This document shows positions 3,327-63,089 of a stretch of DNA of 64,000 nt, piece by piece. Every line of letters starts with the position of its first letter. The first letter of the stretch is position 1. Below the pieces are notes generated by a model, which worked only from the letters and a program-made list of their open reading frames with translations, made no database searches and was not told where the DNA came from. The stretch is from a virus. The stretch lies in IMG/VR virus record IMGVR_UViG_3300028535_000001, one strand, 5' to 3'. Position numbers and translations under genes: made by a program.

Positions 3327-3331
3327 GCTTA

Positions 3332-3339
3332 TATTTATA
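3332..3339 (-). promoter_or_regulatory. T4-type late promoter TATAAATA
   Basis: Exact TATAAATA on the minus strand, 5 nt upstream of the gp25 ATG. Confidence 0.8.
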
Positions 3340-3352
3340 CGACAATTGGTAA

Positions 3353-3652: not shown

Positions 3653-3861
3653 TATCTTCCTATTTTGTCTTTTCTACCTAATGGTAATATTTGCCATTTG
3701 GTCATTTCCAGACCTTTTTTACTTACCCATTCAACGTATACCATTTTTTGTTTAACTTGATTTTGAAAAGATTTAACTGCTTTCTTAAATGAAGTTGATT
3801 CTATTATTTTTTCGCCTTTTTCATCATCTATAAATTTAAATTCTCGCATTTTACTCATCAT
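3652..3861 (-). CDS. Hypothetical basic protein
   Basis: ORF translationally coupled to the PAAR gene. Confidence 0.6.
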   Translation of the reverse strand: MMSKMREFKFIDDEKGEKIIESTSFKKAVKSFQNQVKQKMVYVEWVSKKGLEMTKWQILPLGRKDKIGR

Positions 3862-4139
3862 TTTCCTCTATTTCTATATTTTCTTCAATTCTATTATATT
3901 GACAAACGACAATTTCGTAAATTCTGCCATTTTCGTCTATTTCCGTTCTTTTTAGAACATCTTCGTGAGATTTATTTCCACAATTCATACAATAAATCAT
4001 AATATTATTTAGGTTTAAAAATTACAGCGAATATGAGTATAAAGATCATTTCCGGATAAATTTTTTGCATATTTTTTTACTGATTCTGTATCAAAATCAA
4101 AAAATCTGCAATTTTCAACATTTTTTGAGCAAGAAACTA

Positions 4140-4154
4140 GAACAAAAAGCGAAC
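4140..4154. promoter_or_regulatory. Alphaproteobacterial LexA-type box GAAC-N7-GAAC
   Basis: GAACaaaaagcGAAC upstream of the 4211 promoter. Confidence 0.6.
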
Positions 4155-4210
4155 AGGCTAAAAAAAGCGCCATTTTACGTATATTTTTTGTATTTTTGAG
4201 CATTTTTTTG

Positions 4211-4239
4211 TTGACTTTTCTATATTTATCTGGTATAGT
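4211..4239 (+). promoter_or_regulatory. Sigma70-type early promoter
   Basis: TTGACT-17nt-TATAGT with extended TG. Confidence 0.8.
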
Positions 4240-4273
4240 GGACCAATAAATGAAAATAATAAAGGAAAACACT

Positions 4274-4459
4274 ATGAATACTTTTTTTAGTATTACAACT
4301 ATACTTTCTGCTATAATGGCAGTTGGTTTCATTGAAGATTGTGGTGGTCATTGTTTAGGAAACGATAACTGGCCAATGTTCTTTGTAATGTTTGGAATTA
4401 TGTTAATTTCAGGCATATTAACATTATACACTATGGAGGGAAATAATGACAATTGTTAA
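4274..4459 (+). CDS. Small two-TM membrane protein
   Basis: SD AAGGA then ATG at 4274; two hydrophobic helices around a CGGHC loop. Confidence 0.65.
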   Translation: MNTFFSITTILSAIMAVGFIEDCGGHCLGNDNWPMFFVMFGIMLISGILTLYTMEGNNDNC

Positions 4460-4829
4460 TTTAAAAGCAACTTCTTTAGATGAAGGAGTTAAAAATATGA
4501 TGAATGGTGCCAAGGCAGATTATGTTTCTTGGACTACCGACAAAAATGGTAACGTTTCTGACTACTCAAAAGAAGAAATCGCAAATTGGGATAATAAAAC
4601 AACAGTAAAAAAAGGTCAAAAGTACATTAAGATCGTACATGACAGAGGTGTTTTTGCATTTATCGTAATAAATGATTTTAAACACTTTAAAAAAGGCGAT
4701 ATATTAAAAGCGGCTGGTTATAATGCACCTGCTTTAAATTCTCCTAGAGGAAATGTACTAAATGGCAATTACCATATCAAATGGACTGGTCCTTTGTATA
4801 TGGATTCACAAAGAAGATTAAGAGGATAA
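4446..4829 (+). CDS. Hypothetical early phage protein
   Basis: GGAGG SD; GQKYIKI..GDILKAAGYNAPA motif typical of marine phage hypotheticals. Confidence 0.7.
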   Translation: MTIVNLKATSLDEGVKNMMNGAKADYVSWTTDKNGNVSDYSKEEIANWDNKTTVKKGQKYIKIVHDRGVFAFIVINDFKHFKKGDILKAAGYNAPALNSPRGNVLNGNYHIKWTGPLYMDSQRRLRG

Positions 4830-4830
4830 T

Positions 4831-5124
4831 ATGAATAGACGTGATAGAGTTTTTAGAAATATAGTAAACCCATTATTACTTAAACATATGTTAGACCCAT
4901 TTAAATATCAAGGGTCTTGTATAGCTGCTGGTATACCAATTAAGTATTTAAAATACTTTAAAGAAATTACTAGAGCTAAAAACGCCAAGAAAGTTAGATA
5001 TAGATATAGAGGTTGTTCAAAACCAAATTACAAAAGACCTCAATCTTTTTGTCATATTTTTGGTGCTGATACATTTAGTTTATATTATAGAAATCCAAAC
5101 AATAACTATTTTAGATATAATTAA
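4831..5124 (+). CDS. Hypothetical basic protein
   Basis: Third gene of the plus-strand cassette, AGGA SD. Confidence 0.6.
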   Translation: MNRRDRVFRNIVNPLLLKHMLDPFKYQGSCIAAGIPIKYLKYFKEITRAKNAKKVRYRYRGCSKPNYKRPQSFCHIFGADTFSLYYRNPNNNYFRYN

Positions 5125-5531
5125 CTATCTATAATACGTTTTCTTAAATCGGTGGTGGAGAACCTATGTTCTCTTTTATTGTAAACAATCTTTATGTGTT
5201 TCTTAACACATATCTCTTTACCAGTAAAATTCTTACCTTGATATTCTTCACCTATAATTCTAACTGATATATTATACATTTGGAATATATCTTCTAAATC
5301 TTTTTCTGTTTCGTATGGTATAACTTCATCTACATATTTTATAGCATTAAGTTGTATACTTCTCTCTACCAATGTTTGTATTGGTTTTTTCTTTTCTTTT
5401 GGTCTATCTATAGTTGGATCAGTTTGTAATCCAACAATCAAGTAATCGCATTCTTCTTTAGCGTCTTTTAACATCTGTACATGACCAGCATGTAACAAAT
5501 CAAAAGCACTACACGTAAATCCTACTTTCAT
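5121..5531 (-). CDS. tagD: Glycerol-3-phosphate cytidylyltransferase (TagD-like)
   Basis: FDLLHAGH (HxGH) motif and C-terminal FSTTDLR. Confidence 0.85.
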   Translation of the reverse strand: MKVGFTCSAFDLLHAGHVQMLKDAKEECDYLIVGLQTDPTIDRPKEKKKPIQTLVERSIQLNAIKYVDEVIPYETEKDLEDIFQMYNISVRIIGEEYQGKNFTGKEICVKKHIKIVYNKREHRFSTTDLRKRIIDS

Positions 5532-6490
5532 ATTTTATCCTTTTCTTGCACTCTTTGACTATTAAATCCGTACAACTTTATATAGTTTGCAAGCCATTCA
5601 TGTCCTTTTTTATTTGGGTGTGTATTAGCTTTACTAATAACATAATCATAATTAACTAAATCTTTTGGAGCTATTTTATATAATGTTCTTCCATCGTCCT
5701 CCACATTTAATAACTTCATATCTGTATCTTTGTCGTGTACTCTTTCCTCGGATACGGAGTTCTTCTGCCGTTCTTCATAAGTACTATTAGCAGGATTAAA
5801 GGTAGAATTAGGTATATTATTGGCTAATCTATTTTCCACTCCCCAATTTTTATGTATTTGTACATCACCAAGAACAAAACCACCACATTCGTCAATGATA
5901 GGCCAACCAATAAAGTTTTTCATTTTATGGAAGTATGGTGATGTTTTAATTACATCACAACAACTATTATATATCTTTCTAAATGGTATACCATTATCTT
6001 TATATTCTACTTCATATAGATGATCTATAAATAAAGAAATCATTTGAAAATGTCTATATGGTATTCTATTATTTTCCATTAATGTTTGAAAGGCATACAT
6101 GTATCTTAATGAATCTAATATCCAAAAATGTACATGACCGTATAAATTAGGTTTACTATCATCCCAATTTAAAGAAATTTTTTGCCAATTTGCTCTTTGA
6201 CTTTTTGACCAGGCTGCAATACATAAACCAATTTCTTTTGGATCATGTGACACCACGTAATCTTGTATTGTTGAGAATATTCCTTGTTGACCAAAACCAC
6301 ACTTTGCTAAACAAACTAATTCCATATCTAATTTTTTTGCTAGTAGTTGTGCCCAATTAGGAAAATTCTTTATAGTAATTATATCACCATCATACCTTTG
6401 CCCTGGTACAACACCTTTTGGTGAATTTATTAAATTAACATATTCAATATCTGACCAACTACAACCACCAATTACTAATTTCTTTTTCAT
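5528..6490 (-). CDS. SGNH/GDSL-like hydrolase-fold protein
   Basis: N-terminal GGCSWS and C-terminal THPNKKGH; paralog of 45977-46750. Confidence 0.5.
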   Translation of the reverse strand: MKKKLVIGGCSWSDIEYVNLINSPKGVVPGQRYDGDIITIKNFPNWAQLLAKKLDMELVCLAKCGFGQQGIFSTIQDYVVSHDPKEIGLCIAAWSKSQRANWQKISLNWDDSKPNLYGHVHFWILDSLRYMYAFQTLMENNRIPYRHFQMISLFIDHLYEVEYKDNGIPFRKIYNSCCDVIKTSPYFHKMKNFIGWPIIDECGGFVLGDVQIHKNWGVENRLANNIPNSTFNPANSTYEERQKNSVSEERVHDKDTDMKLLNVEDDGRTLYKIAPKDLVNYDYVISKANTHPNKKGHEWLANYIKLYGFNSQRVQEKDKI

Positions 6491-6501
6491 TTTACCTTTT
6501 A

Positions 6502-7935
6502 CTATCCAACTGATCCTTCCATACTAACTTCTAATAGTTTATGTGCCTCTACTGCAAATTCCATAGGTAGTTTTTGAAATACATCTTTGCAAAAACCTGA
6601 TATAAGCAAGTTTCTAGCGTCTTCATCTTTTAGTCCACGTTGTCTTACATAAAATAGTTGTTCTTCATCTAGTTTAGATGTAGTTGCTTCGTGATTACAA
6701 TGGCTTGTTGAATTTTTATTTTCAATATATGGTACTGTATGAGCAGAACAATGGCTACCTAGTATTAATGAATCGCATTGTGTAAAGTTTTTTGAACTAC
6801 TTGCATTTTTCAAAATCTTTACTAAACCTCTGTACGTATTTGATGAATGTCCTGCAGATATTCCTTTTGATATAATTATACTTTTAGTATTTTTACCCAT
6901 GTGAATCATTTTAGTACCTGTGTCAGCCTGTTGTTTTCCATTTGTTAATGCAACTGAATAAAATTCTCCTACTGAATTATCACCCATTAATAAACAAGAT
7001 GGATACTTCCAAGTTATAGCAGAACCAGTTTCAAATTGTGTCCAAGAGATTTTTGAATTACGTCCTTTGCACTTGCCACGTTTAGTAACAAAATTGTATA
7101 TACCGCCTTTACCTGTAATAGGATCTCCTGGGTACCAGTTTTGTATTGTTGAATATTTTATTTCTGCGTCATCTAGTGCTACAAGTTCTACGTTAGCAGC
7201 GTGTAGTTGATTCTCATCCCTCATTGGTGCTGTACAACCTTCAAGGTAACTTACATAACTGCCTTTGTCTGCTATAATTAAAGTTCTTTCAAACTGTCCT
7301 GTGTTAGCCGCATTGATTCTAAAATATGTACTTAACTCCATTGGACATCTTATTCCTGGTGGCACATATACAAATGAACCATCTGTAAATACAGCAGAAT
7401 TTAAAGCGGCAAATGAATGATCACTTATAGGTATAACTGATCCTAAATATTTTTTTACAAGATCAGGATGTTCTTGTACTGCGTCTGAAAATGAACAAAA
7501 TATAATTCCTTTTTTTGATAATTCTTCTTTAAATGTAGTAGCAACGGATACAGAATCAAATACAGCGTCAACGGCCACTCCTGCTAGTTTGGCTCTTTCA
7601 GTTAATGGTATTCCTAATCTTTCAAAATCTTTTTTAATTTCTGGATCAACATCATCATATGATTTAGGACCTACTTTTGGTGCTGAGTAGTATGATATTG
7701 CTTGATAGTCTATAGGCTTAATATTAAGATTTGCCCAATCGGGTTGTTTTAAAATTTTCCATCTACGGTATGCTTTTAATCTAAATTCAAGTAACCATTT
7801 AGGTTCTTTTTTAATTTTTGAAATTTGTTTTATTGTGTTTTCGTTAAGGCCTGGTGGTAATGTTACTGATTCAACGTTTGTTGTAAACCCAGCATCATAT
7901 TTTTTGTTAATTTTTTCTTGTAGTATGTTATCCAT
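6502..7935 (-). CDS. sufB: Fe-S cluster assembly scaffold SufB
   Basis: [65 protein letters not shown] motifs. Confidence 0.97.
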
Positions 7936-7937
7936 TT

Positions 7938-8402
7938 CTAATCCTTTATCATCTTACGAAATGGAATCATTGTTGAAGGATTAAAGTTATGTCGTTTATA
8001 AAATGTTTGTGCTTGTACATTTGTTTTATCTGTAAGTAAAGTAATTCGTTTACATCCTTTTTTAGTTCCATATTCTATAGCATAATCTAATAACTTTGAA
8101 CCAACACCTGAATCTCTATAATCAGGAGACACAATCATATCTTCAAGTATAGCAACTCGTTCACCTAATGCTGTTGATACTGTATATAAAAGTAAAACCA
8201 TTCCAATTATATCTTCATCTTTTTTTGCAACAAAAATATTACCAATATTGTTATTGTTGAGTATCATTTCTAAACCACGACTTTGTGTTTTATAATTAGG
8301 TTTAAACTCAACTTCTTTTTCAAATAGATAGTTAAGAAGAATACATAACTCTGGAATATCTTTAGTGGTTGCTATCTGTATCATTTTCAACTTTTTCATC
8401 AA
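7938..8402 (-). CDS. GNAT N-acetyltransferase
   Basis: [15 protein letters not shown] acetyl-CoA motif; [10 protein letters not shown]. Confidence 0.85.
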
Positions 8403-8514
8403 TATCTTTTTTCTTTTTCTTCCAAGGTTTAAGGTCTAACAAGACATAAAATATAACTCCACCACATAGACAGATAAACAAAAAACCTAATATTACTTTT
8501 AATATTGTTATCAT
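8362..8514 (-). CDS. Small single-TM protein (50 aa, not in ORF track)
   Basis: MITILKVILGFLFICLCGGVIFYVLLDLKPWKKRKK; ATGA overlap with upstream gene. Confidence 0.5.
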   Translation of the reverse strand: MITILKVILGFLFICLCGGVIFYVLLDLKPWKKKKKDIDEKVENDTDSNH

Positions 8515-8864
8515 TTTTTAAACATTTCATCTAATCTACTATAGAAACTTTCTTTACTAGAATAGCCTACTAATCTTGCAACTTCTTTTCTACCATTCCA
8601 TATAATAAAAGTTGGTGTTCCTCTAATACCTTTAATTCTATTTTCGTTCATTGCCATTATAAACCAAAAAGGTTCTTCATTATGTTCTATAATAGTAAGT
8701 GGTAATTCTTTATTTTTAGAACCATATGAATAGCTAAAGTCTTCGGCGACTTGTTTAATAAATGCTTGACAAATATGACAATGCTTGTTTGAATACATTA
8801 ACAAGTCTAATGCTTGTATTGTTGTAGCATAAAACATTGCTAAAAGAAATATTAATATTTTCAT
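8511..8864 (-). CDS. Exported thioredoxin-like protein (SoxS/SoxW-like)
   Basis: Signal peptide, CHIC CxxC, GTPTFII cis-Pro motif. Confidence 0.75.
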   Translation of the reverse strand: MKILIFLLAMFYATTIQALDLLMYSNKHCHICQAFIKQVAEDFSYSYGSKNKELPLTIIEHNEEPFWFIMAMNENRIKGIRGTPTFIIWNGRKEVARLVGYSSKESFYSRLDEMFKK

Positions 8865-9319
8865 TATTTTTTCTCCACATGTGTTGCTTCACCTTTTTCA
8901 GTATCTATCCATTCTACCACTTGTGTATATTTTTTTGACTTAGCACATGTAGTCCTACATGCATTTGGTCCTATATTATTTGATAAGTCTTCTGCAAATT
9001 GTTTCCATTGTTTTGATTTTAATATATCTTCTATTTTATTGTTATCATCTATAACACTTGCTTTCAACATATCTTGCATTAATGGGTCGTTCATTGTATT
9101 TGGATCGTCAATTCTACAACAAGGTAGTAATACACCTTGATTAGAAACTGCTAAAGCAATTGCGTCTTTAAAACATAAAGGGTCTAACTCAATATCTCCT
9201 TTTGCTCTTAATGGTGATTTAGCTCCTAAAGAGTTATTGATTCTTCTAATATCAGCAGACCTATTAATTCCTCCAATTCTTTTTTTAATCATCTCCGTTT
9301 TTCCTATCAAAACAACCAC
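8864..9319 (-). CDS. SPASM/twitch-like Fe-S domain protein
   Basis: C..GVLLPCC..CRTTC; probable true start at 9292 after GGAG. Confidence 0.65.
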   Translation of the reverse strand: MVVLIGKTEMIKKRIGGINRSADIRRINNSLGAKSPLRAKGDIELDPLCFKDAIALAVSNQGVLLPCCRIDDPNTMNDPLMQDMLKASVIDDNNKIEDILKSKQWKQFAEDLSNNIGPNACRTTCAKSKKYTQVVEWIDTEKGEATHVEKK

Positions 9320-10037
9320 CCCTTACACACTCCTCAATGGATTGATGTTCGCTATGGTCATTTAATGTACTTTTTGTTTTAGGCTTTAACCAATCATCAT
9401 CATCTGTCCATCTTGCACTATTAATTATTATAAAATTAACATCATTATCTTTGGCCATTTTCATTGCTTGCCCAATACTCCTTTCATTATAACTGAATAT
9501 AATATATTGCCATAATGGTTTTGTGGAAAGATACTTTTTACTTTCTAACATAATCTTAAATAGTTTTTCGCCATCTTGATTTTTTCTATATATTCTACTA
9601 TCTTCAGGCATGCCATCTATACCAAATATCCAATTTGCTTTAGGGTTTGCTTGAAAGGCATTGATATAATGTTGCATAGGTTTTAAAGATGAAGCTACAT
9701 GTACTTCAACTTTAGTACCACGTTCTTTTGTGATTTTTAATAATTCGTTTATTTTTGGGTGATGTATTGGGTCTGAATATTGACCACAAAAAGATATTCT
9801 TGTAAACCAATCCAATAATTTATTAAATTCAGGTATTGTTAAATCTCTGCCTGGTACTTTAAGGCCTTTGTATAAGTAACTTCTTTGACGACCACAACGT
9901 AAACATTCTAATGGACACCTATGAGATAGATCAATGTTTAAACGTTTATGTCTTCTATCAAAAAAGGAATTTTCCTTTATTTTGATACCGTGTTCTTTAA
10001 AACACATGTCTATCTTTTCTCTATTCGTTTCAATCAT
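9285..10037 (-). CDS. Radical SAM protein
   Basis: CPLECLRC (CxxxCxxC); FCGQYSDP; FGIDG. Confidence 0.88.
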   Translation of the reverse strand: MIETNREKIDMCFKEHGIKIKENSFFDRRHKRLNIDLSHRCPLECLRCGRQRSYLYKGLKVPGRDLTIPEFNKLLDWFTRISFCGQYSDPIHHPKINELLKITKERGTKVEVHVASSLKPMQHYINAFQANPKANWIFGIDGMPEDSRIYRKNQDGEKLFKIMLESKKYLSTKPLWQYIIFSYNERSIGQAMKMAKDNDVNFIIINSARWTDDDDWLKPKTKSTLNDHSEHQSIEECVRGGCFDRKNGDD

Positions 10038-51621: not shown

Positions 51622-53931
51622 TTAAATATTGCAACTATCACAATCTTCCTCTTTGGTTTCCTCTTTAGGTTCTTCAGGTGTGATAGGTGTATCGTAATCT
51701 ATAGAGTGTTTAGGTTCTTCTATATCTCTTTTACTATCGTATGTGTTTTGGTAGTATGATGTTTTCCAACCATACTTATATGTATTTAATAAATCTTCTA
51801 CCATTACTGAAACAGGTACTTGATTATCTTCAAAATGATCTGGATTATAAGACCAGTTACCTGATATAGCTTGGTCAAAGTACTTTTGCATTACTGCGAC
51901 AACGTTTATATATCCTTCGTTACTAGGCATATCCCATAATAACGTATAAAAATTCTTTAATTTATTATATTCAGGTACTATTTGTTTTAATGTACCTTTT
52001 TTAGACTTCTTAATTGATAAGTGGTCTCTAGGTGGTTCAATGCCGTTTGTAGCATTTGAAACCACACTAGAAGACTCGGAAGGCATTTGGGCTGATAGAG
52101 TACTATGTCGCAGCCCAAATTCTTTAATATCTGCTCGTAATTTGTCCCATTTCATTGATAGTTTACGATTTACAATTTCATCAACTTCTTTTTTGTAAGT
52201 ATCTATTGGTAATATTCCATCTGCGTATTTTGTTCTATGAAATAATTCACACTTACCTTTTTCTTTTGCAAGTTCATTACTTGTTTGTAATAAGTAAAAT
52301 TGAAAAGCCTCTGTTAATTTATCTACTTCTCTCCAAGCACCTTTGTCTTCATATTTGTGTCCAGTTTTTGCTAGATAATGTGCAAGGCCAATATAACCAA
52401 CACCTAATGATCGTCTTTGTTTGGTAGATATTTCAGCGGCCTTTACTGGATATTTTTGATGATCTATCATTTCTTCTAATGCTCTTACTGTAAGATCGCA
52501 TAGTTCTTCCAGTTCAATTGGATCGTTGATCTTACCTACATTGATTGCTGATAGAATACATAGTGCAATCTCTCCTGGACCATCTATATGTTGGATAGGA
52601 GTGGTTGGGAGTGTGATCTCTTGGCATAGGTTACTCATAGTCACTATATCTTTAAATGATGAGTGAGTATTGCAATGGTCTATATTCATTATATAAATTC
52701 TGCCTGTTTCTGCTCTTTCTTTTAATATGTCAAAGAATAATTTTTGTGCTGATATTTTTCTTTTATGTACACTTGTTTTTCTTTCTGCTTTTAAATACAT
52801 ATCATCAAATTCTGGTGTTCCCCATACATCATAAAGTTCTGGTACTTCGTGTGGTGAGAATAGTGTTATTTCTTCTTCATTAATAAATCTTTCATAAAAT
52901 AATTTTGATAACTGTATAGAATAATCTAATTTTCTAACTCTGTTATCTTCCGTACCTTTATTATTTTTTAAAACTATAATATCTTCTATTTCTTGGTGCC
53001 AAATAGGGAAGTGAACAGTTGCCGAACCTCCACGTACTCCGTTTTGAGTACAACACTTAACCGTTGCTTCAAATTTTTTAAGGAAAGGAATAACTCCTGT
53101 ATGTTGGACTTCTCCCCCTCGGATTCTTGCATTAATTCCTCGTACTCTACCTGCGTTGATACCGATACCGGCTCTTTGAGCAACGTAATTTCCAATAGCC
53201 ATGTCACTACTGAATATGCTAGGTAAAGTATCGTCAACGTCAACAAGTACACAACTAGCATACTGCTTAATAGGAGTACGAACACCAGCCATAACAGGAG
53301 TTGGAATATTAATTTTAAAATTGGATATAGCGTCATAATATTTCTTAACATAGGTCATTCTCCTTTGTTTTGAATAATTTTGAAAAAGTGTAGCAGATAT
53401 TAACATATACATAAATTGAGGAGTTTCAAAAACTTCTCCACTTGATCTATCTTGTACTAGATACTTGTCAATGACTTGTCTTAAGCCTGCATATGTAAAG
53501 GTATTATCTTTGTCATGTGTAATCCAATTCTGCATTCTACTAAAATCTTTTTTATCATATTTTTTTAAAATTTCTGGATCGTATACACCTTTTTCAATAC
53601 ACTTCTCTACATGATCGTAGATGTGTGGATGATCCCATAATCTACCAATAACTTGTTTTCTTAAACTGAACAATAATAGTCTAGCAGCCACGTATTGGTA
53701 GTTGGGATTTTCTAGGGAGATTAAATCTGAAGCTGACTTGATTAAAATTTGTTGTATATCATTTGTGGTAATACCATCATAAAATTGGAGGCCACTATTC
53801 ATTTCAACTTGTGAGGCTGATACACCTTTTATATCTTCACAAGCATACTCAACCATTTCATGTATCTTATCAATATTAAGAGGTTCACTTCCTCTTCCAT
53901 TTCTTTTTTCAACGTTTATTTTATCAATCAT
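51622..53931 (-). CDS. nrdA: Ribonucleotide reductase class Ia alpha subunit
   Basis: ATP cone, PTPVMAG, ASCVL, SNLCQEI, KTSYY, C-terminal CDSC. Confidence 0.97.
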   Translation of the reverse strand: MIDKINVEKRNGRGSEPLNIDKIHEMVEYACEDIKGVSASQVEMNSGLQFYDGITTNDIQQILIKSASDLISLENPNYQYVAARLLLFSLRKQVIGRLWDHPHIYDHVEKCIEKGVYDPEILKKYDKKDFSRMQNWITHDKDNTFTYAGLRQVIDKYLVQDRSSGEVFETPQFMYMLISATLFQNYSKQRRMTYVKKYYDAISNFKINIPTPVMAGVRTPIKQYASCVLVDVDDTLPSIFSSDMAIGNYVAQRAGIGINAGRVRGINARIRGGEVQHTGVIPFLKKFEATVKCCTQNGVRGGSATVHFPIWHQEIEDIIVLKNNKGTEDNRVRKLDYSIQLSKLFYERFINEEEITLFSPHEVPELYDVWGTPEFDDMYLKAERKTSVHKRKISAQKLFFDILKERAETGRIYIMNIDHCNTHSSFKDIVTMSNLCQEITLPTTPIQHIDGPGEIALCILSAINVGKINDPIELEELCDLTVRALEEMIDHQKYPVKAAEISTKQRRSLGVGYIGLAHYLAKTGHKYEDKGAWREVDKLTEAFQFYLLQTSNELAKEKGKCELFHRTKYADGILPIDTYKKEVDEIVNRKLSMKWDKLRADIKEFGLRHSTLSAQMPSESSSVVSNATNGIEPPRDHLSIKKSKKGTLKQIVPEYNKLKNFYTLLWDMPSNEGYINVVAVMQKYFDQAISGNWSYNPDHFEDNQVPVSVMVEDLLNTYKYGWKTSYYQNTYDSKRDIEEPKHSIDYDTPITPEEPKEETKEEDCDSCNI

Positions 53932-54929
53932 TTTATTTTTTTCCAATGGTTTAATTTAGTGAGAGCACTTAATTGTGAGTAAGTATTCGTCTTTATAATA
54001 TCTGTAATTTTATTAATTGTAAAGCCACCAAGAATCATATCATTAATATCTTTAAATTGTAAATCTTCTGGCCATATAACAATGTTGAAATCAGAATCAA
54101 TCATCTTATACATGCGATTTATAATTTCTTTATTTCTTGGTTCGTTGTCAAATATATAGGTTATCCTATTGTTCGGTACTTTGTTATTTAAAGACAAATC
54201 GGCACCAGCAGCTGCGATACAATTGCCAATGAACAATGAATCAAACGGACCTTCAACTATATATACATGATCTTGAAAATTTAAACGTTCTAATCCAAAA
54301 ACTTTTTGTTTGTTTTCGTTTAGCTTAATTGTTAAGTATTTAGGAATATCACGTCCTAAACTACGACCTTGAAAAGCAAATAACTCACCAGTTGTATCGT
54401 AAAAAGGAATAATGATCCTATTGTGATCCTTTTGAGTTTTATATGTATTTGGTTTAACTTTATTAACAAGCTGTTGAAATTTTTCTACATAATATAACTT
54501 ATCAAAAAATTCTTCAGGTATTTTTCTATCTATTAAATATTTTTTTGCAACATGTTCATCATCTAAATCTTTAATTACTTTACAATCGTTTAATATATTA
54601 ATTTTAAATACAGGTTTTTCAAATTTCCAATTTGGTTCAGGTGTAGATGGTGCTGACCCTTTATATCTTTCTAATAGATATTCTTTGTGTAGTTTAGGGT
54701 CTATAAATTTTAAGAAGTTAGTAAAGTTTTGTCCTTGGCCACAATTATGGCATTTAAAGAACATATCATTTTTTACTCTATAAAAATATGCTCTTGCTTT
54801 ACTTTTAGATTTTTTAGAATCACCACAATGAGGACAACGAAAGTTAAACAGATAGTCTGTTTTCTGTTTAAACTGTTGCAACCTTCCCGATAGTTGATTG
54901 ATAAATTTTAGATCAATATAAGATGACAT
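53928..54929 (-). CDS. 61: DNA primase gp61
   Basis: NFRCPHCGDS..FKCHNC zinc site; VEGPFDSLF and FDNEPRN TOPRIM. Confidence 0.95.
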   Translation of the reverse strand: MSSYIDLKFINQLSGRLQQFKQKTDYLFNFRCPHCGDSKKSKSKARAYFYRVKNDMFFKCHNCGQGQNFTNFLKFIDPKLHKEYLLERYKGSAPSTPEPNWKFEKPVFKINILNDCKVIKDLDDEHVAKKYLIDRKIPEEFFDKLYYVEKFQQLVNKVKPNTYKTQKDHNRIIIPFYDTTGELFAFQGRSLGRDIPKYLTIKLNENKQKVFGLERLNFQDHVYIVEGPFDSLFIGNCIAAAGADLSLNNKVPNNRITYIFDNEPRNKEIINRMYKMIDSDFNIVIWPEDLQFKDINDMILGGFTINKITDIIKTNTYSQLSALTKLNHWKKIK

Positions 54930-54939
54930 AGTAAAGAAT

Positions 54940-54968
54940 ACTATACACCATTACTATGAAATTGTCAA
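54940..54968 (-). promoter_or_regulatory. Sigma70-type promoter for primase-nrdAB
   Basis: TTGACA-17nt-TATAGT. Confidence 0.78.
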
Positions 54969-54970
54969 GC

Positions 54971-55414
54971 TTAATTGAAAAATGAAAGCAAAGGGAAAAA
55001 ACCTTTTTTGGATAACATTAAAACCGTTATAGACTCTACGGCAATAAAGGCACCTATAATAATCCACTTGTACTTTTCTAACATACTAATTCTACCTCTA
55101 AATTCGGTTTTTATCTCAATCAGTTCATTTTTTATACGTTTTTCAGATTCTTCTATTTTATCAGAAAGTTCTTTTTCTATACTTATCGTCTCACTGGCTC
55201 TTATCTTTAGTTTAGAAAATATCACATCATCTATCTTTTCCTGGTGTTCAATCTTCTCCTCGTGTACAGCCAGCATAGATTTAATAGAAGATGATACCTC
55301 TGTCAACTTATCAATAGCTACATCTAATCTATGTTGTATATTATTAATCTGTTGTACATCTTTAGTTAATTCTGCTAATTGTACGTGTATTTCTGTGTGG
55401 TTATTTTCTGCCAT
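54971..55414 (-). CDS. Coiled-coil protein with C-terminal TM
   Basis: RLDVAIDKLTEVS..MLAVHEEKI..LEKYKWIIIGA; late promoter at 55436. Confidence 0.7.
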   Translation of the reverse strand: MAENNHTEIHVQLAELTKDVQQINNIQHRLDVAIDKLTEVSSSIKSMLAVHEEKIEHQEKIDDVIFSKLKIRASETISIEKELSDKIEESEKRIKNELIEIKTEFRGRISMLEKYKWIIIGAFIAVESITVLMLSKKGFFPLLSFFN

Positions 55415-55561: not shown

Positions 55562-57196
55562 CTAAATTGTGTAGATAGATACCATATTAGATTTGCCTTT
55601 AACTTTAACCATATCTAATTTCTTCCAATCGTATTTTGATCTTAGCATTCTGTATGTATCATAACCTACAATTAATGTTGCGTCATAATTTTTACTTACA
55701 CCTTCTAATCTACTTGCAAGATTAACGGCGTCACCTAAAACAGAATAATCAAAACGTTGATCTGATCCCATATTACCAACTACAGCAGGACCTGAATTTA
55801 TTCCTATGCCGATGTTTATCTTAATATCTGGACCAAAACTATCACTGTCATTTAATTCTTTTAATTTGTTCATCATTTCACATGCCGAGTTAACTGCAAG
55901 TGATCTATGATTATGTTGTTGTATTGGAGCATTCCAAAATGCCATAATACAATCGCCCATGTACTTATCAATAGTACCACCATTTTTCATTATAATGTTT
56001 GTCATGGGTGTTAAAAATTTATTTATAACTTTTGTAAGACCTTGTGGATCAGATTGAAATTTTTCTGAAATAGGAGTAAATCCTCTTATGTCACAAAATA
56101 AAAAAGTCATATCTCTTGTATCACCACCTAATTTTAAAAGTTCAGGATTTTTCTGCAACTTCTTAACCATATCTGGTGCTAGGTAATGTTCAAATTGTTT
56201 TTTGATTTGTAATTTTAATCTATTCTCTCTTGCAAAGTTATTGTATATCAAGTGTGCCCATACTATACTTCCTATTACTGCGATTGATGACCAATCTGTA
56301 AGTATCATATGTTTTTGCCATAGATAACCACTTGTAAGTGCTAAATCAAAATAAAAACCGACTAAAATTGCGGCTGACCAAAATAAGTCAACTCTAGGTA
56401 AAACTATTAAAAAGAAACCTAATGTTAATAATAAAGCAATCCATTCTGCCATAGGTGCCCAATCAGGTCTTTTTATATACTCACCTGATAATAAAGTTTC
56501 TGTTGACAAGGCCGCTATTTCGTGTGTGTTCTTTAAACCATTAGGTGTAAGTACAAAAGTGGAACCATCAAATGTAGCACCTATGAATACTATCTTACCT
56601 TTCATAGATGACCAATCTTTATCTGTATAATCTATTCTAGGTATTCTATGTCTGAAATCAATCCATATACTATCTTGGTCAGGTATTGGAAACTTGATTA
56701 TGGATAAAATCTTTTCCGGCACGGAATTATCCAAGGATAAAATTCGTATAACAGAGTCAACGCCCACTTTCACTTCCACGTTAGCGATAGCGAGAGATTT
56801 CCTTTCAATACTCTTTAAGTTCTTAGCTGTACTTGTTTCAGTTAGAATAACTGGATACTTTGAGATCATCTTCAAAAACATTTCATCACCACCTAGCCTA
56901 TCTTTGTGAACAAATACTACGTTCAAAAATACTAGAGCTGCACCATTTTTATATGCATTGATGATAGTACGACCTAATATGTCTCTCTTCCAAGGCCATT
57001 GACCTTGTTTCTTTAATGCTTCATTTGATATATCTAACAACACAAGACTTTTAGACTCATAGTTATCGCCAAGTGTTTGATATAGATCAAAGGTCTTTAG
57101 TTGGAGGGTTTGTAAAGGTACTGGATTATATAATTTTAATCCTAATAGTATTAATACACTTACTATTACTGCCCAAATGGAAGTAAATTTAGTCAT
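55562..57196 (-). CDS. CHASE2-domain class III adenylate cyclase
   Basis: N-terminal TM, GQWPWKR CHASE2 motif, 3 TM, FCDIRGFT, DKYMGDCIMAFW, DYSVLGDAVNLASRLE. Confidence 0.93.
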   Translation of the reverse strand: MTKFTSIWAVIVSVLILLGLKLYNPVPLQTLQLKTFDLYQTLGDNYESKSLVLLDISNEALKKQGQWPWKRDILGRTIINAYKNGAALVFLNVVFVHKDRLGGDEMFLKMISKYPVILTETSTAKNLKSIERKSLAIANVEVKVGVDSVIRILSLDNSVPEKILSIIKFPIPDQDSIWIDFRHRIPRIDYTDKDWSSMKGKIVFIGATFDGSTFVLTPNGLKNTHEIAALSTETLLSGEYIKRPDWAPMAEWIALLLTLGFFLIVLPRVDLFWSAAILVGFYFDLALTSGYLWQKHMILTDWSSIAVIGSIVWAHLIYNNFARENRLKLQIKKQFEHYLAPDMVKKLQKNPELLKLGGDTRDMTFLFCDIRGFTPISEKFQSDPQGLTKVINKFLTPMTNIIMKNGGTIDKYMGDCIMAFWNAPIQQHNHRSLAVNSACEMMNKLKELNDSDSFGPDIKINIGIGINSGPAVVGNMGSDQRFDYSVLGDAVNLASRLEGVSKNYDATLIVGYDTYRMLRSKYDWKKLDMVKVKGKSNMVSIYTI

Positions 57197-57203
57197 ATCA
57201 TAT

Positions 57204-59354
57204 TTAGTCCGTTTGAATGATTGTGATATTGTTTTGAGTAGAGCTGCTACCTACATCAAGGTGTTGTGCTTCAGTATCTTGTAAAATCTGTATGTCTGCC
57301 TCTTTACTAGTTTCAGTTTTTACATAAGCTCTATGATTGTCGTTGTATCTATTTAATATTGTGTAATCACCAGACGTTGAGGCAGTTGCGTTAAAGTCGT
57401 TATCTAACGTTGATACTCTTCCTGTAGAAGTAATACTTGTTGACACACCACCACTTGTTGTAGTTAAGGTTTGAGTTACATCTCCAGTACTATAATTTAA
57501 AACTTCACCACTAGCAGTTACTTGCGTTTCTGAACCACTATTATCAACCCACTCCGTACCACAACTTGATTGAGCATTGTCCCAATAGTATCCATAATTT
57601 AAACAATCTTCTTTATCATAACTTGCTAATAACAATTCTAATTCTGCGTCTATGTCATAGTTATCTTCAAAATCATACTCATCTTCCCAATTAGACTCAT
57701 CATCTTCATTATTGTAATCGTAACCTGTATACCACCAATCATACACGGCGTCCCAATATATGTCCCAATCTGCCCACTCCCAATCAGTTATGTAAGTCTT
57801 CTTTAAGTCTTTCATCTTCCAAGGTTTAGGTTGGTTATCACACATCTTATAGTTTGGCCACGATCCACACCAACCATATAATTTACCCCATATCTCTTTT
57901 GATTCTTTAGTCCAACTATCGTTAGTTACTTTTAAAGTCCAATCATCTTTGTACCAGTCATTTAAATAATCAACATAATCTTGGTTACACCAATAGTCTT
58001 CGTAACCATTGTACTCACAATAGTTTTGTACAGTTAATGTTGGAGGTCCACCTTGGTTTTTGTATTCTGCATTGTTATAGTAGTCATCATCTAAAGCAAA
58101 ATCTTCCCAAGTATATCCTTCAACTGTAGTTGCTTCTGTTTCATCTTTTGTATCTTCAACAACATCTTGTTCATCTACATCAACATTCCAAGAAGTTAAA
58201 CCATAGTCTTCTAATAGATCATTATACTTGTCCGAATATTCGTCCCAATCTACAGCGTCCCAATCAATAGTATCCCAATCAATAGTATCCCAGGTACAAT
58301 CTGAACAACCAATAGCGTCAAAGTATGCTTGATCCATTTCTGCATACATTTTCTTTGCGTCATCCCAATCCATAGTTTGCTCACCTTCGGCATCCCAAAC
58401 TGAAATCTGGTTGTCTTCATCTATATAACCCCAATCTTTTAAATCATCTTCCCAAGAATCATAATAAGATGTATCAACTTCTTCTACTTCAACTAAAGTA
58501 TTTTCTTCTGCTGATTTTGTTTCAATCATTGTATCTGCTTCACTAGAAGATAAATCTGTACCAACAATTGTATTACTATCTTCTACTATACTTGCTTCTT
58601 CATTAATTAAAGCCTCTTCCATTTCTTGTGCTTCTTGTTCGTCTTTAGACATTTCAGATTTTGAATCTATATCACCAAAATGTTTTGCTGTATCTTCTTT
58701 AATTTCATCTTCAAATTCATCTAACTCAATAATGTCTGACTTATTAGTCTCTATCTTTGGAGGAGTTGGTGTTAAGTCGTTTGATACAACTGTCACTGAA
58801 TTGTAAGCGTTAGTTATTGTTTGAGAACCTGCGTCATTGGAGACCGTTACCGACCCTACTGCACCATCACTATCTGGTAGTAAGGTAATTGTAACCTCAC
58901 CACTAGTGTCAACTGTTCCTGAAAAGGCAGTACCTTGTACTGTAATTGAGGCAAATCCAGCATTGATGTTAACTTCACCACCTAAATTAGATACCTGTCC
59001 TGATTCATATGTAAATGTACCAACGTTAACTGATATGTTCATTGCCAATTCAATTGGTACAACCGATGTATCAAAAGCAAACTCATCAATTATTAATTCT
59101 GTATTTGGTCCCATTGTAAATTTAGTATTATCAAGGTAATGAATAATCATACCACCATCTTCACCAGTTTGGAGGAAATCGTTCATCTGCAACTCATAAC
59201 CCATTGCTGTATTTTGAGTTTCTCCTTCTCTTTCGTTCCAAGTAGTACCCATTTGGCCTATGACTTCGCCAACTTTAGGACTTGTTATTTGTGATGATGA
59301 AATACTAGTACAGAAAAGTACCAGAAAGGTAATAAAAAATAAAATTCTTTTCAT
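57204..59354 (-). CDS. Exported FecR-domain protein with long acidic W/D/Y-rich region
   Basis: Signal peptide; DFLQTG..DNTKFTMGPNTELIIDEF..ASITVQGTAF FecR pattern; ends NNITIIQTD. Confidence 0.8.
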   Translation of the reverse strand: MKRILFFITFLVLFCTSISSSQITSPKVGEVIGQMGTTWNEREGETQNTAMGYELQMNDFLQTGEDGGMIIHYLDNTKFTMGPNTELIIDEFAFDTSVVPIELAMNISVNVGTFTYESGQVSNLGGEVNINAGFASITVQGTAFSGTVDTSGEVTITLLPDSDGAVGSVTVSNDAGSQTITNAYNSVTVVSNDLTPTPPKIETNKSDIIELDEFEDEIKEDTAKHFGDIDSKSEMSKDEQEAQEMEEALINEEASIVEDSNTIVGTDLSSSEADTMIETKSAEENTLVEVEEVDTSYYDSWEDDLKDWGYIDEDNQISVWDAEGEQTMDWDDAKKMYAEMDQAYFDAIGCSDCTWDTIDWDTIDWDAVDWDEYSDKYNDLLEDYGLTSWNVDVDEQDVVEDTKDETEATTVEGYTWEDFALDDDYYNNAEYKNQGGPPTLTVQNYCEYNGYEDYWCNQDYVDYLNDWYKDDWTLKVTNDSWTKESKEIWGKLYGWCGSWPNYKMCDNQPKPWKMKDLKKTYITDWEWADWDIYWDAVYDWWYTGYDYNNEDDESNWEDEYDFEDNYDIDAELELLLASYDKEDCLNYGYYWDNAQSSCGTEWVDNSGSETQVTASGEVLNYSTGDVTQTLTTTSGGVSTSITSTGRVSTLDNDFNATASTSGDYTILNRYNDNHRAYVKTETSKEADIQILQDTEAQHLDVGSSSTQNNITIIQTD
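58243..58292. repeat. 15-bp tandem repeat x3 encoding WD[TA][IV]D
   Basis: tcccaatcaatagta twice plus a degenerate tcccaatctacagcg. Confidence 0.8.
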
Positions 59355-59356
59355 TT

Positions 59357-60448
59357 TTAACATCCATTGGAAACCGTAGCCGTAACATCAGCTGATTGTG
59401 TGTTTCTATTAAATGAATAGGTACAAGAATCTGAACCGTTTTGTGCAAAGTTTAATGTGTAATCGTAAATTGAATCACCTGATATGGTAACTTGACCTGT
59501 GTTACCACCACCTGTTTGGTCAAAATTTATTACCGAACCATCTGTATAAAGATAAATCTTGGCAGTATTATTTCCACCTGCCATATGTAATCTTATTGTA
59601 TTACTATCTCCAGATATGTATGTTCTTAAATAGTTACCGTCACCTAATATCAACATTGTATCTCCATATGGATCAGTATCGGCACTAGTATAACTAGAGT
59701 GAATATCTAAAATATTTGAACTACCTATAATATCGTGGAGTTGATAGTTACCTGTACCGTATGATGAAGTATGTAATCTATTGGAATTCCCAATAATATA
59801 AATGTCTGCTGTAGCGCCTTCACTACCTGAACTATCTGCAAATTGTCCATGTGATGTTGTTTGTGGACCAATAGCCTTGTTAGAGTTTGTATTAAATCCT
59901 ACTGAATCAGTTGTACCATAAAATTGTACATCATTTGAATCACCTGACATAAGAACATATAAGAAGTGATTATCACCTTTATTTCTTACCCAAAAAGTAT
60001 TTGAGTCACCTGTAATATCTAAATCAACATTGAAATTTGCTGTATCATTTGCCCAAGTATCATAATCTACTACGTTTAAGTTACCTGTAATATCGTGGTC
60101 TAAATAATGTCCAGTAGCATCCGTATCATCACTATCTATTCTTAATTTATTACCATCACCAGTTGCTGTATAATCTAAAGTCATATTCTCACCTTTAAAA
60201 CTCACGTGATTTGAATAATCTGTTACGTTATTATTACCTATTTGTTTAATAATGATTGTGATGTTCTCTCCATCTACTTTAAATGGATAAGATGTAGAAT
60301 ACCCTACTGTATTACCAGTACCATCTTGTTTGATAAAAATTGATCCGTCGCTATCTTGGTTGTCTTGTTGAATCCAAACGGAATTGCCTGCGAAACTGTT
60401 AGTTAGTGTCGCTAGAAGAATCACTATTGACATCATTATTTTTCTCAT
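59357..60448 (-). CDS. Secreted curlin-like beta-solenoid repeat protein
   Basis: Signal peptide; many IxQxGxxN / IxGDSN repeats at about 23-aa spacing; C-terminal Cys pair. Confidence 0.72.
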   Translation of the reverse strand: MRKIMMSIVILLATLTNSFAGNSVWIQQDNQDSDGSIFIKQDGTGNTVGYSTSYPFKVDGENITIIIKQIGNNNVTDYSNHVSFKGENMTLDYTATGDGNKLRIDSDDTDATGHYLDHDITGNLNVVDYDTWANDTANFNVDLDITGDSNTFWVRNKGDNHFLYVLMSGDSNDVQFYGTTDSVGFNTNSNKAIGPQTTSHGQFADSSGSEGATADIYIIGNSNRLHTSSYGTGNYQLHDIIGSSNILDIHSSYTSADTDPYGDTMLILGDGNYLRTYISGDSNTIRLHMAGGNNTAKIYLYTDGSVINFDQTGGGNTGQVTISGDSIYDYTLNFAQNGSDSCTYSFNRNTQSADVTATVSNGC

Positions 60449-61385
60449 CTGTATTCTCCTCTTGTTCTAATTTTTTTAATTCTTCTTTTTGTTTAAGATA
60501 ATCTTCATAGGTTTTCTCTTTTTTCTTCTCACCTATATCCACATGTACACCTATTTCAACATCATTTGTATGATCTATATAATCTTTAATCTCTGGTATT
60601 GTTACTTCTTCTATTTTATATGCCCATAAATCTTTTATAATACCTTTGTGTATTAAATCTACTACACCTTTTTCAATTGCTTTTCTTATTGCAAAGGTCA
60701 CTGGTTCGTTTCTAGCATAACCAGCTTCAATCTCTACTAACATTGTATCTGTATCAAAATATTTAAATACATCTGATCCAAAAGCTGTAGAAACTATAGT
60801 CTTTTCAATAGTAGTTACTATAACTACCTCACCTGTTTGTACATTAACCAATCTTAATATAACTGTAACAATATCTTGTCTGTATTGTTTATTAGCTTGA
60901 ATACCTAATACTCTTGCACCTAATCCACCAGATTTAATATCACTATCATAACCTACTATACCACCTGTGATATATGCACCTGCGAATAACAATGGTGGTA
61001 ATGGTTCTGCACCTTCTCCATTAATTTGTTGTCTTGTAGACCTAATTAGTTTTCTTTCTTGTAATAGACTTGGTAAACTTGTTCTCTCTACAACTCTAAA
61101 CCATTTGCCATCACCTGCGTCTTGTAAAGCTTTAATTAATAACTGATATGATCCTTGAGTAACCGCTGTACTCATTGAGGCAAAGTTACCACCTGGTTTC
61201 TTTTGACCAGTCATATCAACAAAGTCATAGACAGCAATTATAATAGGGTCACCACTAGGTGCCTTAATTTCTGTTAAATCTTTATAAGCAACCTTTTGTG
61301 TTCTTATATCAAAATTTACTTTGTTTGAACCAGCACAACCAACTAACAAAAATGTTAGTAATATTACTGATAATATTCTTATCAT
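60399..61385 (-). CDS. csgG: Curli secretion channel lipoprotein CsgG
   Basis: Lipobox LVGC; AVYDFVDMTGQKKP, STAVTQG, WFRVVER..LLQERKLIR, GGIVGYD, NEPV. Confidence 0.92.
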   Translation of the reverse strand: MIRILSVILLTFLLVGCAGSNKVNFDIRTQKVAYKDLTEIKAPSGDPIIIAVYDFVDMTGQKKPGGNFASMSTAVTQGSYQLLIKALQDAGDGKWFRVVERTSLPSLLQERKLIRSTRQQINGEGAEPLPPLLFAGAYITGGIVGYDSDIKSGGLGARVLGIQANKQYRQDIVTVILRLVNVQTGEVVIVTTIEKTIVSTAFGSDVFKYFDTDTMLVEIEAGYARNEPVTFAIRKAIEKGVVDLIHKGIIKDLWAYKIEEVTIPEIKDYIDHTNDVEIGVHVDIGEKKKEKTYEDYLKQKEELKKLEQEENTDEKNNDVNSDSSSDTN

Positions 61386-61849
61386 TACGAATTGTCTTCC
61401 TTCGGCATAGTAAATGTTGTTACAGTGCCATCTGATTCAGTTACAGTTACGCTTACAGTATCATTTGTTCCTGTAGTTGTTGTTGCCCAAGTTACCACTT
61501 CACCACCAACTGGTGATGTAAATGTACCAGAGTCTTGTTGTAGACCATCTGTACCAAAAACGTTATCTGTAAGTTGTTTTGCTAATGCTGTATAAAATCT
61601 TGCTTCAACATTTGCTTTGAATTTTGCAACAGCAGTTGCCTTTGCGTCAGCTATTAGTTTATCAGCTGCCGCTTTGTTAGCTGCTTTGATTGCGTCTTTT
61701 CTAGTCTTCTCTATGTTCTCTATCGTTAGATAGTGTGATGATTTTCCCACTCCACTAAATGATGGACTGTGAAATTTAAAACCTAATTCACTTGCATAGG
61801 TACTAGAACAGAACAATAATGTTATTAAAATGATTGATAATTTTTTCAT
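61385..61849 (-). CDS. csgF: Curli assembly protein CsgF
   Basis: Signal peptide then ASELGFKFHSPSFSG, similar to the CsgF N-terminal channel-binding motif; next to csgG. Confidence 0.8.
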   Translation of the reverse strand: MKKLSIILITLLFCSSTYASELGFKFHSPSFSGVGKSSHYLTIENIEKTRKDAIKAANKAAADKLIADAKATAVAKFKANVEARFYTALAKQLTDNVFGTDGLQQDSGTFTSPVGGEVVTWATTTTGTNDTVSVTVTESDGTVTTFTMPKEDNS

Positions 61850-61870
61850 ATTCCCTCTATTTTACACCAA

Positions 61871-61878
61871 TATTTATA
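61871..61878 (-). promoter_or_regulatory. Late promoter TATAAATA for the csgF-cyclase operon
   Basis: Exact motif 21 nt upstream of the csgF ATG. Confidence 0.75.
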
Positions 61879-62519: not shown

Positions 62520-62942
62520 TTACCTCACTCTTTTTCTATTATTTATATGTGCCTTCTCAACTAATTTTTTATTTTGACCATAATATGTTACAGCATGTCC
62601 TACTTTACACATTAATTTATTAACAGATTTACCATCAAGCCATACATCACCAAGTATTCTTCCAAACTTACCTGTTTCGGAATCTCTGTATGTTTTGATT
62701 GAAATCTTTGTTGCTTTTTTGATTTGTTCTTGTAAGAATTTTTTAGATTTTAGTCCGTATTTCTTCTCAACTAAATCTCTTGTTCTAGATTCTGGTGTAT
62801 CTATACCAAACAATCTAACTCTTTGTGCAAATAGAATATTAAAACCCATATCCAGTATTACATCTATTGTATCACCGTCTACGATTTTTGTTACTCTTTT
62901 AACTCTGTAATTGTAATCAGTTTTATCACCTAATTTAGCCAT
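62520..62942 (-). CDS. Thermonuclease (SNase-like)
   Basis: KIVDGDTIDV, RVRLFGIDTPESR, GKFGRILG; start after AAGGT SD. Confidence 0.9.
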   Translation of the reverse strand: MAKLGDKTDYNYRVKRVTKIVDGDTIDVILDMGFNILFAQRVRLFGIDTPESRTRDLVEKKYGLKSKKFLQEQIKKATKISIKTYRDSETGKFGRILGDVWLDGKSVNKLMCKVGHAVTYYGQNKKLVEKAHINNRKRVR

Positions 62943-63089
62943 AATATACCTTTCAATTTTATTTATGCCTTTGGTCCCAATTATAAGGGTTGACCTCATC
63001 AGCAAACTTATTAATTTTATAAATCAAATATATGATAAAAATAATGTAACCTAAAATGTATAACATTATTCATATTTTCCTTTTATTTT

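Follow-up and report, generated by a model that had tools for sequence, protein, structure and literature searches.

A pelagiphage curli-type cassette with an exported FecR-fold protein and a CHASE2 adenylate cyclase, and a proposed coupling of secretion to cAMP synthesis

A 64,000-nucleotide stretch of viral DNA (IMG/VR record IMGVR_UViG_3300028535_000001, hereafter the window) carries a cassette of five genes that encode CsgF, the outer-membrane pore protein CsgG, a curlin-like protein, an exported FecR-fold protein and a CHASE2 adenylate cyclase. This is almost certainly the type VIII (curli) secretion set with a FecR-domain protein and an adenylate cyclase known from pelagiphages, and the window is a further copy of that published, functionally uncharacterised cassette, in an uncultured SAR11-type, HTVC008M-like and T4-like myophage. 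We consider it probable, though well short of certain, that the five genes form a curli-type secretion apparatus that is read through the FecR-fold protein by the cyclase, which would report on it in cyclic AMP (cAMP). As the gene content has already been published, the window adds another member to a known group and the new part is the hypothesis of a secretion-coupled FecR-CHASE2 pair.

The initial annotation of the window stated that no functional description of such a phage system was known. The cassette, its order, its distribution and its transcription have in fact been published (PMC9599517, PMC7029224). Zaragoza-Solas et al. (2020) described a "curli operon" in pelagimyophages and placed it in a hypervariable region (PMC7029224), and Wittmers et al. 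(2022) described the full set of CsgF, CsgG, CsgA/B, FecR, a second CsgA/B and adenylate cyclase, with alphaproteobacterial affinities and an order conserved in pelagi-podophages and pelagi-myophages (PMC9599517). According to the same study the cassette is present at all 65 GOV2.0 stations, accounts for about 0.1% of the assembled viral proteins of that collection and has transcripts in metatranscriptomes, the timing of which is not reported. Our DNA similarity search with the window found only Pelagibacter phage HTVC008M (NC_020484), whose genes gp014 to gp019 are annotated in a like manner as CsgF, CsgG, "curlin CsgB", two hypothetical proteins and an adenylate/guanylyl cyclase. Among these, gp017 is homologous to the FecR protein, at 34% identity over residues 10-204, and gp016 and gp018 are relatives of the curlin.

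Linkage of the five genes among phages

The cyclase of the window has at least 599 viral relatives in IMG/VR, and nearly every locus with enough flanking DNA also carries the csgF, csgG, curlin and FecR genes. Counted from csgG, in the 30 viral loci with at least 2.6 kb upstream and 7 kb downstream, the csgF, curlin and FecR genes are present in 30 out of 30 and the cyclase gene in 28. The initial annotation had taken the five genes for one conserved unit, and the near-total co-occurrence of the cyclase and FecR genes with csgFG agrees with this. The expectation that the five-gene order would be conserved holds in part. The run csgF-csgG-curlin-FecR is fixed in phages and the FecR gene always comes directly after a curlin gene, while the cyclase gene has three placements: next to the FecR gene, which it abuts in the window; 1-6 kb further downstream, with extra genes in between; or inverted. 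In 21 related loci (L014, L024, L026, L028, L030-L033, L036 and others) the inverted cyclase gene stands head-to-head with csgF across a spacer of 46-101 bp. Consequently a single transcript is not required and co-transcription of all five genes, which had been assumed, is not obligatory. That the linkage of the cyclase survives such rearrangement argues for function. In these inverted loci the T4-type late-promoter box TATAAATA is found on the csgF strand of the spacer, often together with a AATAAATA-like box on the cyclase strand, and the spacer may be a compact bidirectional late promoter.

The phage loci fall into two deeply diverged clades (39-45% identity). In the clade of the window the FecR protein is long (about 715-850 aa), there is a single curlin and the cyclase is short; in that of HTVC008M the FecR protein is short (about 365 aa), there are two curlins and the cyclase is long. 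One further contig of 20.3 kb (L162, IMGVR_UViG_3300009409_000070) encodes a CsgG that is 100% identical to that of the window and probably comes from the same phage population.

The secretion components

The identities given to the five proteins by the initial annotation were borne out by Pfam, structure and model matches, and export signals are predicted from the sequences of all four envelope proteins of the cassette. CsgF matches its Pfam family with an E-value of 1.5e-8 (35.3 bits, cut-off 25.8) and phrog_35372 at 4e-32; it reads ELGFKFHSPSFSG after the signal peptide and has no sequence match to solved CsgF. CsgG matches its family at 1.1e-50 (172 bits), and its residues 8-256 align to E. 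coli CsgG (3x2r/6l7a) at 166 bits. Its lipobox is LVGC, with the Cys at position 17, and its constriction loop reads KKPGGNFASMSTAV against FKPYP-ASNFSTAV in E. coli, with the Tyr replaced by Gly and the Asn-Phe pair offset. The stretch that encodes the K/E/D-rich, low-complexity tail of CsgG (window 60399-60620, minus strand) runs 50 nt into the beginning of the curlin gene. The total length of CsgG ranges from 328 to 474 aa in close relatives (homologues L034-L041), and the tail-less proteins of the HTVC008M clade have about 270 aa.

The third protein has no Pfam match above threshold, the Curlin_rpt family not being reached. It carries recurring G-x-x-N and Q-x-G-x-x-N repeats, whose G-x-x-N motif is invariant in 21 homologues, and it is related to gp016 ("CsgB") and gp018 of HTVC008M. 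Its AlphaFold2 model (predicted local distance difference test, pLDDT, 72; predicted template modelling score, pTM, 0.75) consists of paired strands with a period of 11 or 22-25 aa. A Foldseek search of this model against the PDB gave no match below an E-value of 0.07; CsgA was found by an exhaustive VIA search only, in which the cryo-EM structure of Pontibacter CsgA (8c50) came first with a Z score of 26, followed by generic beta-helices with a Z score of 17. On the strength of this model the protein is a CsgA-fold secreted subunit of curlin type.

The FecR-fold protein

The fourth protein consists of a signal peptide, a FecR domain, an acidic linker, a helical middle and a C-terminal beta module. 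The helical middle (about residues 300-600) is acidic and rich in Trp, Tyr and Cys, with 26 Trp and seven Cys in residues 301-600. The protein itself stays below the threshold of the Pfam FecR family (E 0.013), and 22 of its 30 aligned phage homologues match that family (PF04773), the best at 1.4e-13. Sixteen columns of the FecR domain are invariant in these 30 homologues. The model of the domain superposes on the periplasmic domains of two FecR-family proteins, the PupR CCSSD (6ovm, Z 15.1) and BDI_1681 (4m0h, Z 14.7). Its first half also resembles the periplasmic anchoring domain of the adhesin MpIBP (5ix9), with a root-mean-square deviation of 0.9 over 62 columns and a Z score of 7.4. Neither an anti-sigma domain nor a transmembrane segment beyond the signal peptide was found in the sequence and its hydropathy profile, and because both the anti-sigma domain and a membrane anchor are missing, the name FecR should not be read here as iron regulation.

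The C-terminal module of about 60-90 aa is confined to the phage FecR proteins that go with csgG. Across both phage clades its residues Q695, I715 and Q717 hardly vary, and a profile built on the module recovers the FecR C-termini in an independent set of csgG loci and none of the ORFs (open reading frames) adjoining bacterial cyclases. Two other readings of this protein were tried and rejected. The tail (..DIQILQD..NITIIQTD) was considered as a curlin repeat; when the FecR and curlin families were compared with hhalign only their signal peptides aligned (probability 38%), and the tail profile gave a single weak match on the curlin side, to a second-curlin ORF in the locus L212 (E 2e-4). A FecR-curlin fusion was likewise discarded, BLASTP of the protein against HTVC008M gp018 giving no similarity.

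The CHASE2 adenylate cyclase

The cyclase comprises a first transmembrane helix (residues 4-22), a CHASE2 domain (15-262), a hydrophobic block (about 250-318) and a catalytic domain (361-539). CHASE2 is matched at 2.7e-23 (83 bits) over positions 4-252 of the 257 of the Pfam profile, and Guanylate_cyc at 1.5e-22 (80 bits). The hydropathy profile gives the single N-terminal helix and a hydrophobic block after CHASE2 (segment 253-287) in which a third helix would lie. This arrangement fits a periplasmic CHASE2 sensor and a cytoplasmic catalytic domain.

Aligned to CyaB of P. aeruginosa (3r5g, 116 bits) and to other solved class III cyclases, the enzyme has D369 and D415 as its metal-binding residues, K411 as the substrate Lys and N492 and R496 as the transition-state pair. 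These residues had been recognised correctly in the initial annotation, which had also named an Asp as the second specificity residue. In the alignment this second purine-specifying position is Ser485, opposite the Thr of CyaB, and the Asp (Asp483) lies two residues earlier. None of D369, K411, D415, S485, N492 and R496 varies among 23 viral homologues. In the classification of Linder and Schultz class IIIb enzymes have a Lys/Thr(Ser) substrate pair and class IIIa enzymes a purine-specifying Asp at the second position. Since Ser485 stands opposite the CyaB Thr, the enzyme is by this alignment an adenylate-specific cyclase of class IIIb.

Bacterial relatives and type I secretion

The closest cellular relatives of the phage cyclase are alphaproteobacterial. 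In none of 80 bacterial cyclase loci was csgG or csgF found within 10 kb. Among the 48 alphaproteobacterial loci of at least 15 kb, 17 have an ORF with a FecR domain, often directly adjacent to the cyclase, which confirms the statement of the initial annotation that FecR-CHASE2 cyclase pairs occur in bacteria. Eighteen of the 48 have an HlyD-type gene, usually beside an ATP-binding cassette (ABC) exporter. Where examined, the bacterial FecR domain lies near the N-terminus of proteins that are 650-2600 aa long and resemble adhesins of the RTX, cadherin or BapA-prefix type. In the locus L111 the genes for a FecR-cadherin-RTX protein, an ABC exporter, HlyD and the cyclase form one co-directional run, and L129, L091 and L161 are comparable. 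In L161 (6107-21000) we also observed a C39-ABC exporter, an HlyD fused to a cyclic-nucleotide-monophosphate (cNMP)-binding domain, the CHASE2 cyclase and a separate cNMP-binding protein, along with a DUF1538 protein, a second HlyD/ABC pair and a 977-aa FecR and RTX protein; L136 and L141, from marine alphaproteobacterial single-amplified genomes, are further cases. Judged from its genes, a layout of this type suggests type I secretion gated by cAMP.

The module was also found in a phage in a version that goes with type I secretion. The 172-kb phage contig L071 (IMGVR_UViG_3300029319_007985) encodes at 122-9830 a FecR-cadherin-RTX protein (1471 aa), a TolC-like OEP (546 aa), a 248-aa ORF, an HlyD-like protein (232 aa) and a CHASE2 cyclase, with phage exonuclease, QueD and endonuclease genes downstream. 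In a FastTree tree of 100 cyclases (unrooted and quickly made) all viral sequences form one clade with a support of 100, and the L071 cyclase falls inside it. So do the cyclases of L082 and L124, contigs of 2-3 kb binned into metagenome-assembled genomes of Rhizobiaceae and Saprospiraceae. L124 also has a curlin-like ORF, and both contigs are probably mis-binned phage fragments.

The literature holds related pairs. A LysM-FecR protein is encoded in an operon with a CHASE2 kinase in Burkholderia (PMC5192318), and the FecR-domain protein SMc02177 is among the targets of the Clr/cAMP circuit that is fed by the CHASE2 cyclase CyaD1 in S. meliloti (PMC5498481). In the literature library searched we found no paper that treats CHASE2 together with type I secretion systems, RTX proteins or adhesins, and none that treats the FecR domain together with a retention module or adhesin.

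A proposed mechanism and its alternatives

From these proteins and their linkage we infer pore assembly, fibre formation, a contact between FecR and CHASE2 and an effect of cAMP as follows. The late-type promoter would drive the expression of four Sec-exported proteins and one inner-membrane enzyme. CsgG would be lipidated and form a channel in the outer membrane, with CsgF as its cap, and the CsgA-fold subunit would be pushed out through it and stack into a surface fibre. The FecR-fold domain would remain in the periplasm and contact the periplasmic CHASE2 domain of the cyclase, while the phage-specific C-terminal module of the same protein would engage the pore or the fibre. Synthesis of cAMP in the cytoplasm would then report or control the state of the secretion apparatus. 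We lean towards the secretion of a fibre by the cassette, and we hold a tie between the FecR-CHASE2 coupling and the secretion conduit to be plausible, just short of an even balance.

What speaks for this tie is comparative. The relatives fit a pattern in which the FecR-fold domain and the CHASE2 cyclase are constant, the secretion machine is interchangeable and the C-terminus of the FecR protein changes to match it. Together with the likeness to MpIBP this pattern fits a component that is held at a pore and read by the cyclase, as a correlation and not as proof. A broader reading, in which we have less confidence, is that the conserved core is the pair of exported FecR-fold protein and CHASE2 cyclase itself, plugged onto whichever outer-membrane secretion conduit is available, the FecR domain being the periplasmic stub, read by CHASE2, of a protein anchored at the surface. 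Alphaproteobacteria and one phage contig would then use type I secretion as the conduit, the exported protein having an RTX tail, and most SAR11-type phages would use CsgG/CsgF, with the phage-specific C-terminal module. We offer this version as a doubtful but possible generalisation.

Several observations weigh against the proposed apparatus. The initial annotation had reported that csgE, csgC and csgD are missing from the window; our check, which covered the ORFs flanking the cassette, found none of the three there, and of these it is the missing CsgE that counts here. CsgF and the constriction loop of CsgG have diverged from those of E. coli, two of the 30 csgG loci have no cyclase, and the C-terminal module of the FecR protein has no profile similarity to curlin repeats. 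The likeness to 5ix9 spans only about 74 residues. A cNMP-binding profile built from the bacterial neighbours had no match in the window or in any viral locus, and in the literature searched we found no information on cAMP receptors of SAR11. Finally, no clumping was seen in infected cultures of Melnitz, an OM43 phage that carries csgGF (PMC9004378).

A rival view is that the cyclase and the FecR protein are a self-contained cAMP sensor that rewires host metabolism or expression and rides in the curli island with no physical or signalling tie to the pore and the fibre. The csgG loci without cyclase, the changing position of the cyclase gene, the bacterial FecR-CHASE2 pairs that exist away from csgG and csgF and the hypervariable region in which the operon sits (Zaragoza-Solas et al., PMC7029224) all speak for such a passenger. 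It is nevertheless an unlikely account, as the co-occurrence in 28 of 30 loci holds across both diverged clades and through rearrangements, the FecR gene is always inside the csg run directly after a curlin gene, and the C-terminal module is specific to the csgG version of a protein whose type I secretion versions end in RTX. The identification of the FecR protein with a ferric citrate-type iron regulator, in a cassette that imports iron or cofactors, has been discussed (PMC9599517) and has the Pfam family name on its side. We regard it as very improbable: a signal peptide is followed by the FecR fold only, neither a TonB-dependent transducer nor an extracytoplasmic function (ECF) sigma factor was found nearby, and the bacterial cousins are RTX or cadherin adhesin-like proteins.

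The remaining alternative concerns the pore. CsgG and CsgF might make no fibre and act as a pinholin- or secretin-like lysis timer or as an uptake channel, with the solenoid and the FecR protein as its gate or plug and cAMP as the timer. A lysis-timing pore has been proposed for phage CsgGF by Buchholz et al. (2022; PMC9004378), so that the lysis-timing idea of the initial annotation is not new, and uptake has been discussed for phage curli genes (PMC7029224, PMC9599517). The cultures that did not clump, the missing CsgE gatekeeper and the late type of the promoter box all suit this account. It finds it hard to explain why a full-length CsgA-fold subunit is encoded in 30 out of 30 loci, and CsgG, as an outer-membrane protein, cannot act on the inner membrane in the way of a depolarising pinholin. 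Beside the cassette in the window we found no lysis genes. Together these points make the bare pore quite improbable, more so than the passenger sensor. As to the apparatus with a FecR-read cyclase, which we prefer, the chain from fibre or plug through FecR and cyclase to lysis timing would be one way of using it, and nothing in our data supports a specific link to lysis inhibition.

If the broader reading of a FecR-CHASE2 pair on exchangeable conduits is true, it would be a case of outside-in signalling into cAMP, possibly by mechanical force or by occupancy, that is a cAMP counterpart of the LapA/LapD/LapG circuit of cyclic di-GMP, and it would give the orphan CHASE2 domain a class of ligand. 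SAR11 phages are among the most abundant viruses of the ocean, and with the cassette a host that has no curli genes would gain a surface structure and a second-messenger enzyme. What the cassette does would matter for aggregation and superinfection, for the timing of lysis and for carbon export. A FecR-CHASE2 pair that sits on interchangeable machines could make the question of function testable with few E. coli constructs.

Layout of the cassette and neighbouring genes

The five genes are intact minus-strand ORFs that abut or overlap and fill positions 55562-61878, as had been annotated (Table 1). Going from csgF to the cyclase gene, neighbours overlap by 1 nt, 50 nt and 7 nt at the first three junctions, and 7 nt separate the last two genes. 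Scans for terminators and sigma-70 promoters within the cassette gave hits at chance level only.

Table 1 Features of the curli-type cassette in the window.
Feature	Position	Strand	Basis
TATAAATA box, T4-type late-promoter consensus	61871..61878	-	exact match, 22 nt upstream of csgF ATG
CsgF-like protein, 154 aa, N-terminal signal peptide	61385..61849	-	Pfam CsgF, phrog_35372
CsgG outer-membrane lipoprotein pore subunit, 328 aa, K/E-rich C-terminal tail of about 70 aa	60399..61385	-	Pfam CsgG, E. coli CsgG structures, lipobox
CsgA-fold curlin-like solenoid subunit (model-based), 363 aa, signal peptide, Cys342/Cys363 pair	59357..60448	-	AlphaFold2 model, motif conservation
Exported FecR-fold protein, 719 aa	57204..59363	-	Pfam matches of homologues, model fold
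FecR-fold domain of the 719-aa protein, about residues 30-205	58749..59276	-	invariant columns, PF04773 in homologues, PupR fold
C-terminal beta module of the 719-aa protein, about residues 627-719, ends ..NITIIQTD	57207..57485	-	profile of phage FecR proteins only
CHASE2 adenylate cyclase, predicted class IIIb, 544 aa	55562..57196	-	Pfam CHASE2 and Guanylate_cyc, CyaB alignment

The exact T4-type late box that had been noted ahead of csgF is present, and its position is kept in relatives: in most close (clade I) relatives, in both gene arrangements, a box stands about 29-33 nt before the csgF ATG, often directly 3' of a terminator hairpin, and in some it reads CATAAATA. The raw count of TATAAATA in the AT-rich window is not above chance (14 copies against 19 expected). 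Thirteen of the 14 copies are on the coding strand, and for nine of these 13 an ORF starts within the next 120 nt downstream. By analogy with T4 the cassette would be expressed late.

Next to the cassette the window carries a primase-like gene, NrdA and an SNase homologue. The latter (62520-63005, minus strand; Pfam 6.5e-16) lies upstream, and between it and csgF there are small ORFs that match no family, one with a hydrophobic segment. The primase appears as two ORFs (53928-55414, minus strand), a 147-aa DUF7201 protein and a DnaG-type core of 333 aa, which are 41 nt apart and correspond to the N- and C-terminal parts of phrog_451 (positions 7-106 and 131-461). An exact TATAAATA also stands 22 nt upstream of the first of these ORFs, at 55414.

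Comparison with known systems

The cassette can be compared with type I secretion adhesins of the LapA/MpIBP type, with which it shares the superposition of the anchoring domain, the FecR proteins next to the cyclases of bacteria and of one phage being RTX adhesin-like. The protein of the window differs in that it is Sec-exported and has no RTX repeats, the messenger would be cAMP rather than cyclic di-GMP, and retention at a CsgG pore is hypothetical. With the FecR/PupR anti-sigma regulators it shares the fold of the periplasmic domain, with which PupR binds an outer-membrane protein at its periplasmic signalling domain. In contrast to these regulators it is a soluble, Sec-exported protein with no anti-sigma domain, transmembrane anchor, partner sigma factor or TonB transducer. 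The alphaproteobacterial CHASE2 cyclases and the Burkholderia operon resemble the cassette in combining a CHASE2 sensor with an exported protein that has a FecR domain, whereas the bacterial pairs lie near type I secretion genes in many cases and near csgG or csgF in none.

The curli system of E. coli (CsgA/B/E/F/G) has in common with the cassette the CsgG lipoprotein channel, a member of the CsgF family and a solenoid subunit with the CsgA fold. The cassette differs by the absence of CsgE, CsgC and CsgD from the flanking ORFs, by its diverged CsgG loop and CsgF and by a curlin subunit about 2.5 times longer than E. coli CsgA. The closest system is the published type VIII secretion region of pelagiphages, which has the same core order csgF-csgG-curlin-FecR(-curlin)-cyclase, occurs in the same host group and is likewise without CsgC, CsgD and CsgE. 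The proteins of HTVC008M are 34-47% identical to those of the window, which belongs to a sister clade. The window has no histidine kinase upstream of csgF, unlike what is reported for podophages, and it differs from HTVC008M by one curlin instead of two, by the C-terminal tail of CsgG, by a cyclase of 544 instead of 611 aa and by a FecR protein of 719 instead of 368 aa, with a helical insert rich in Trp and Asp.

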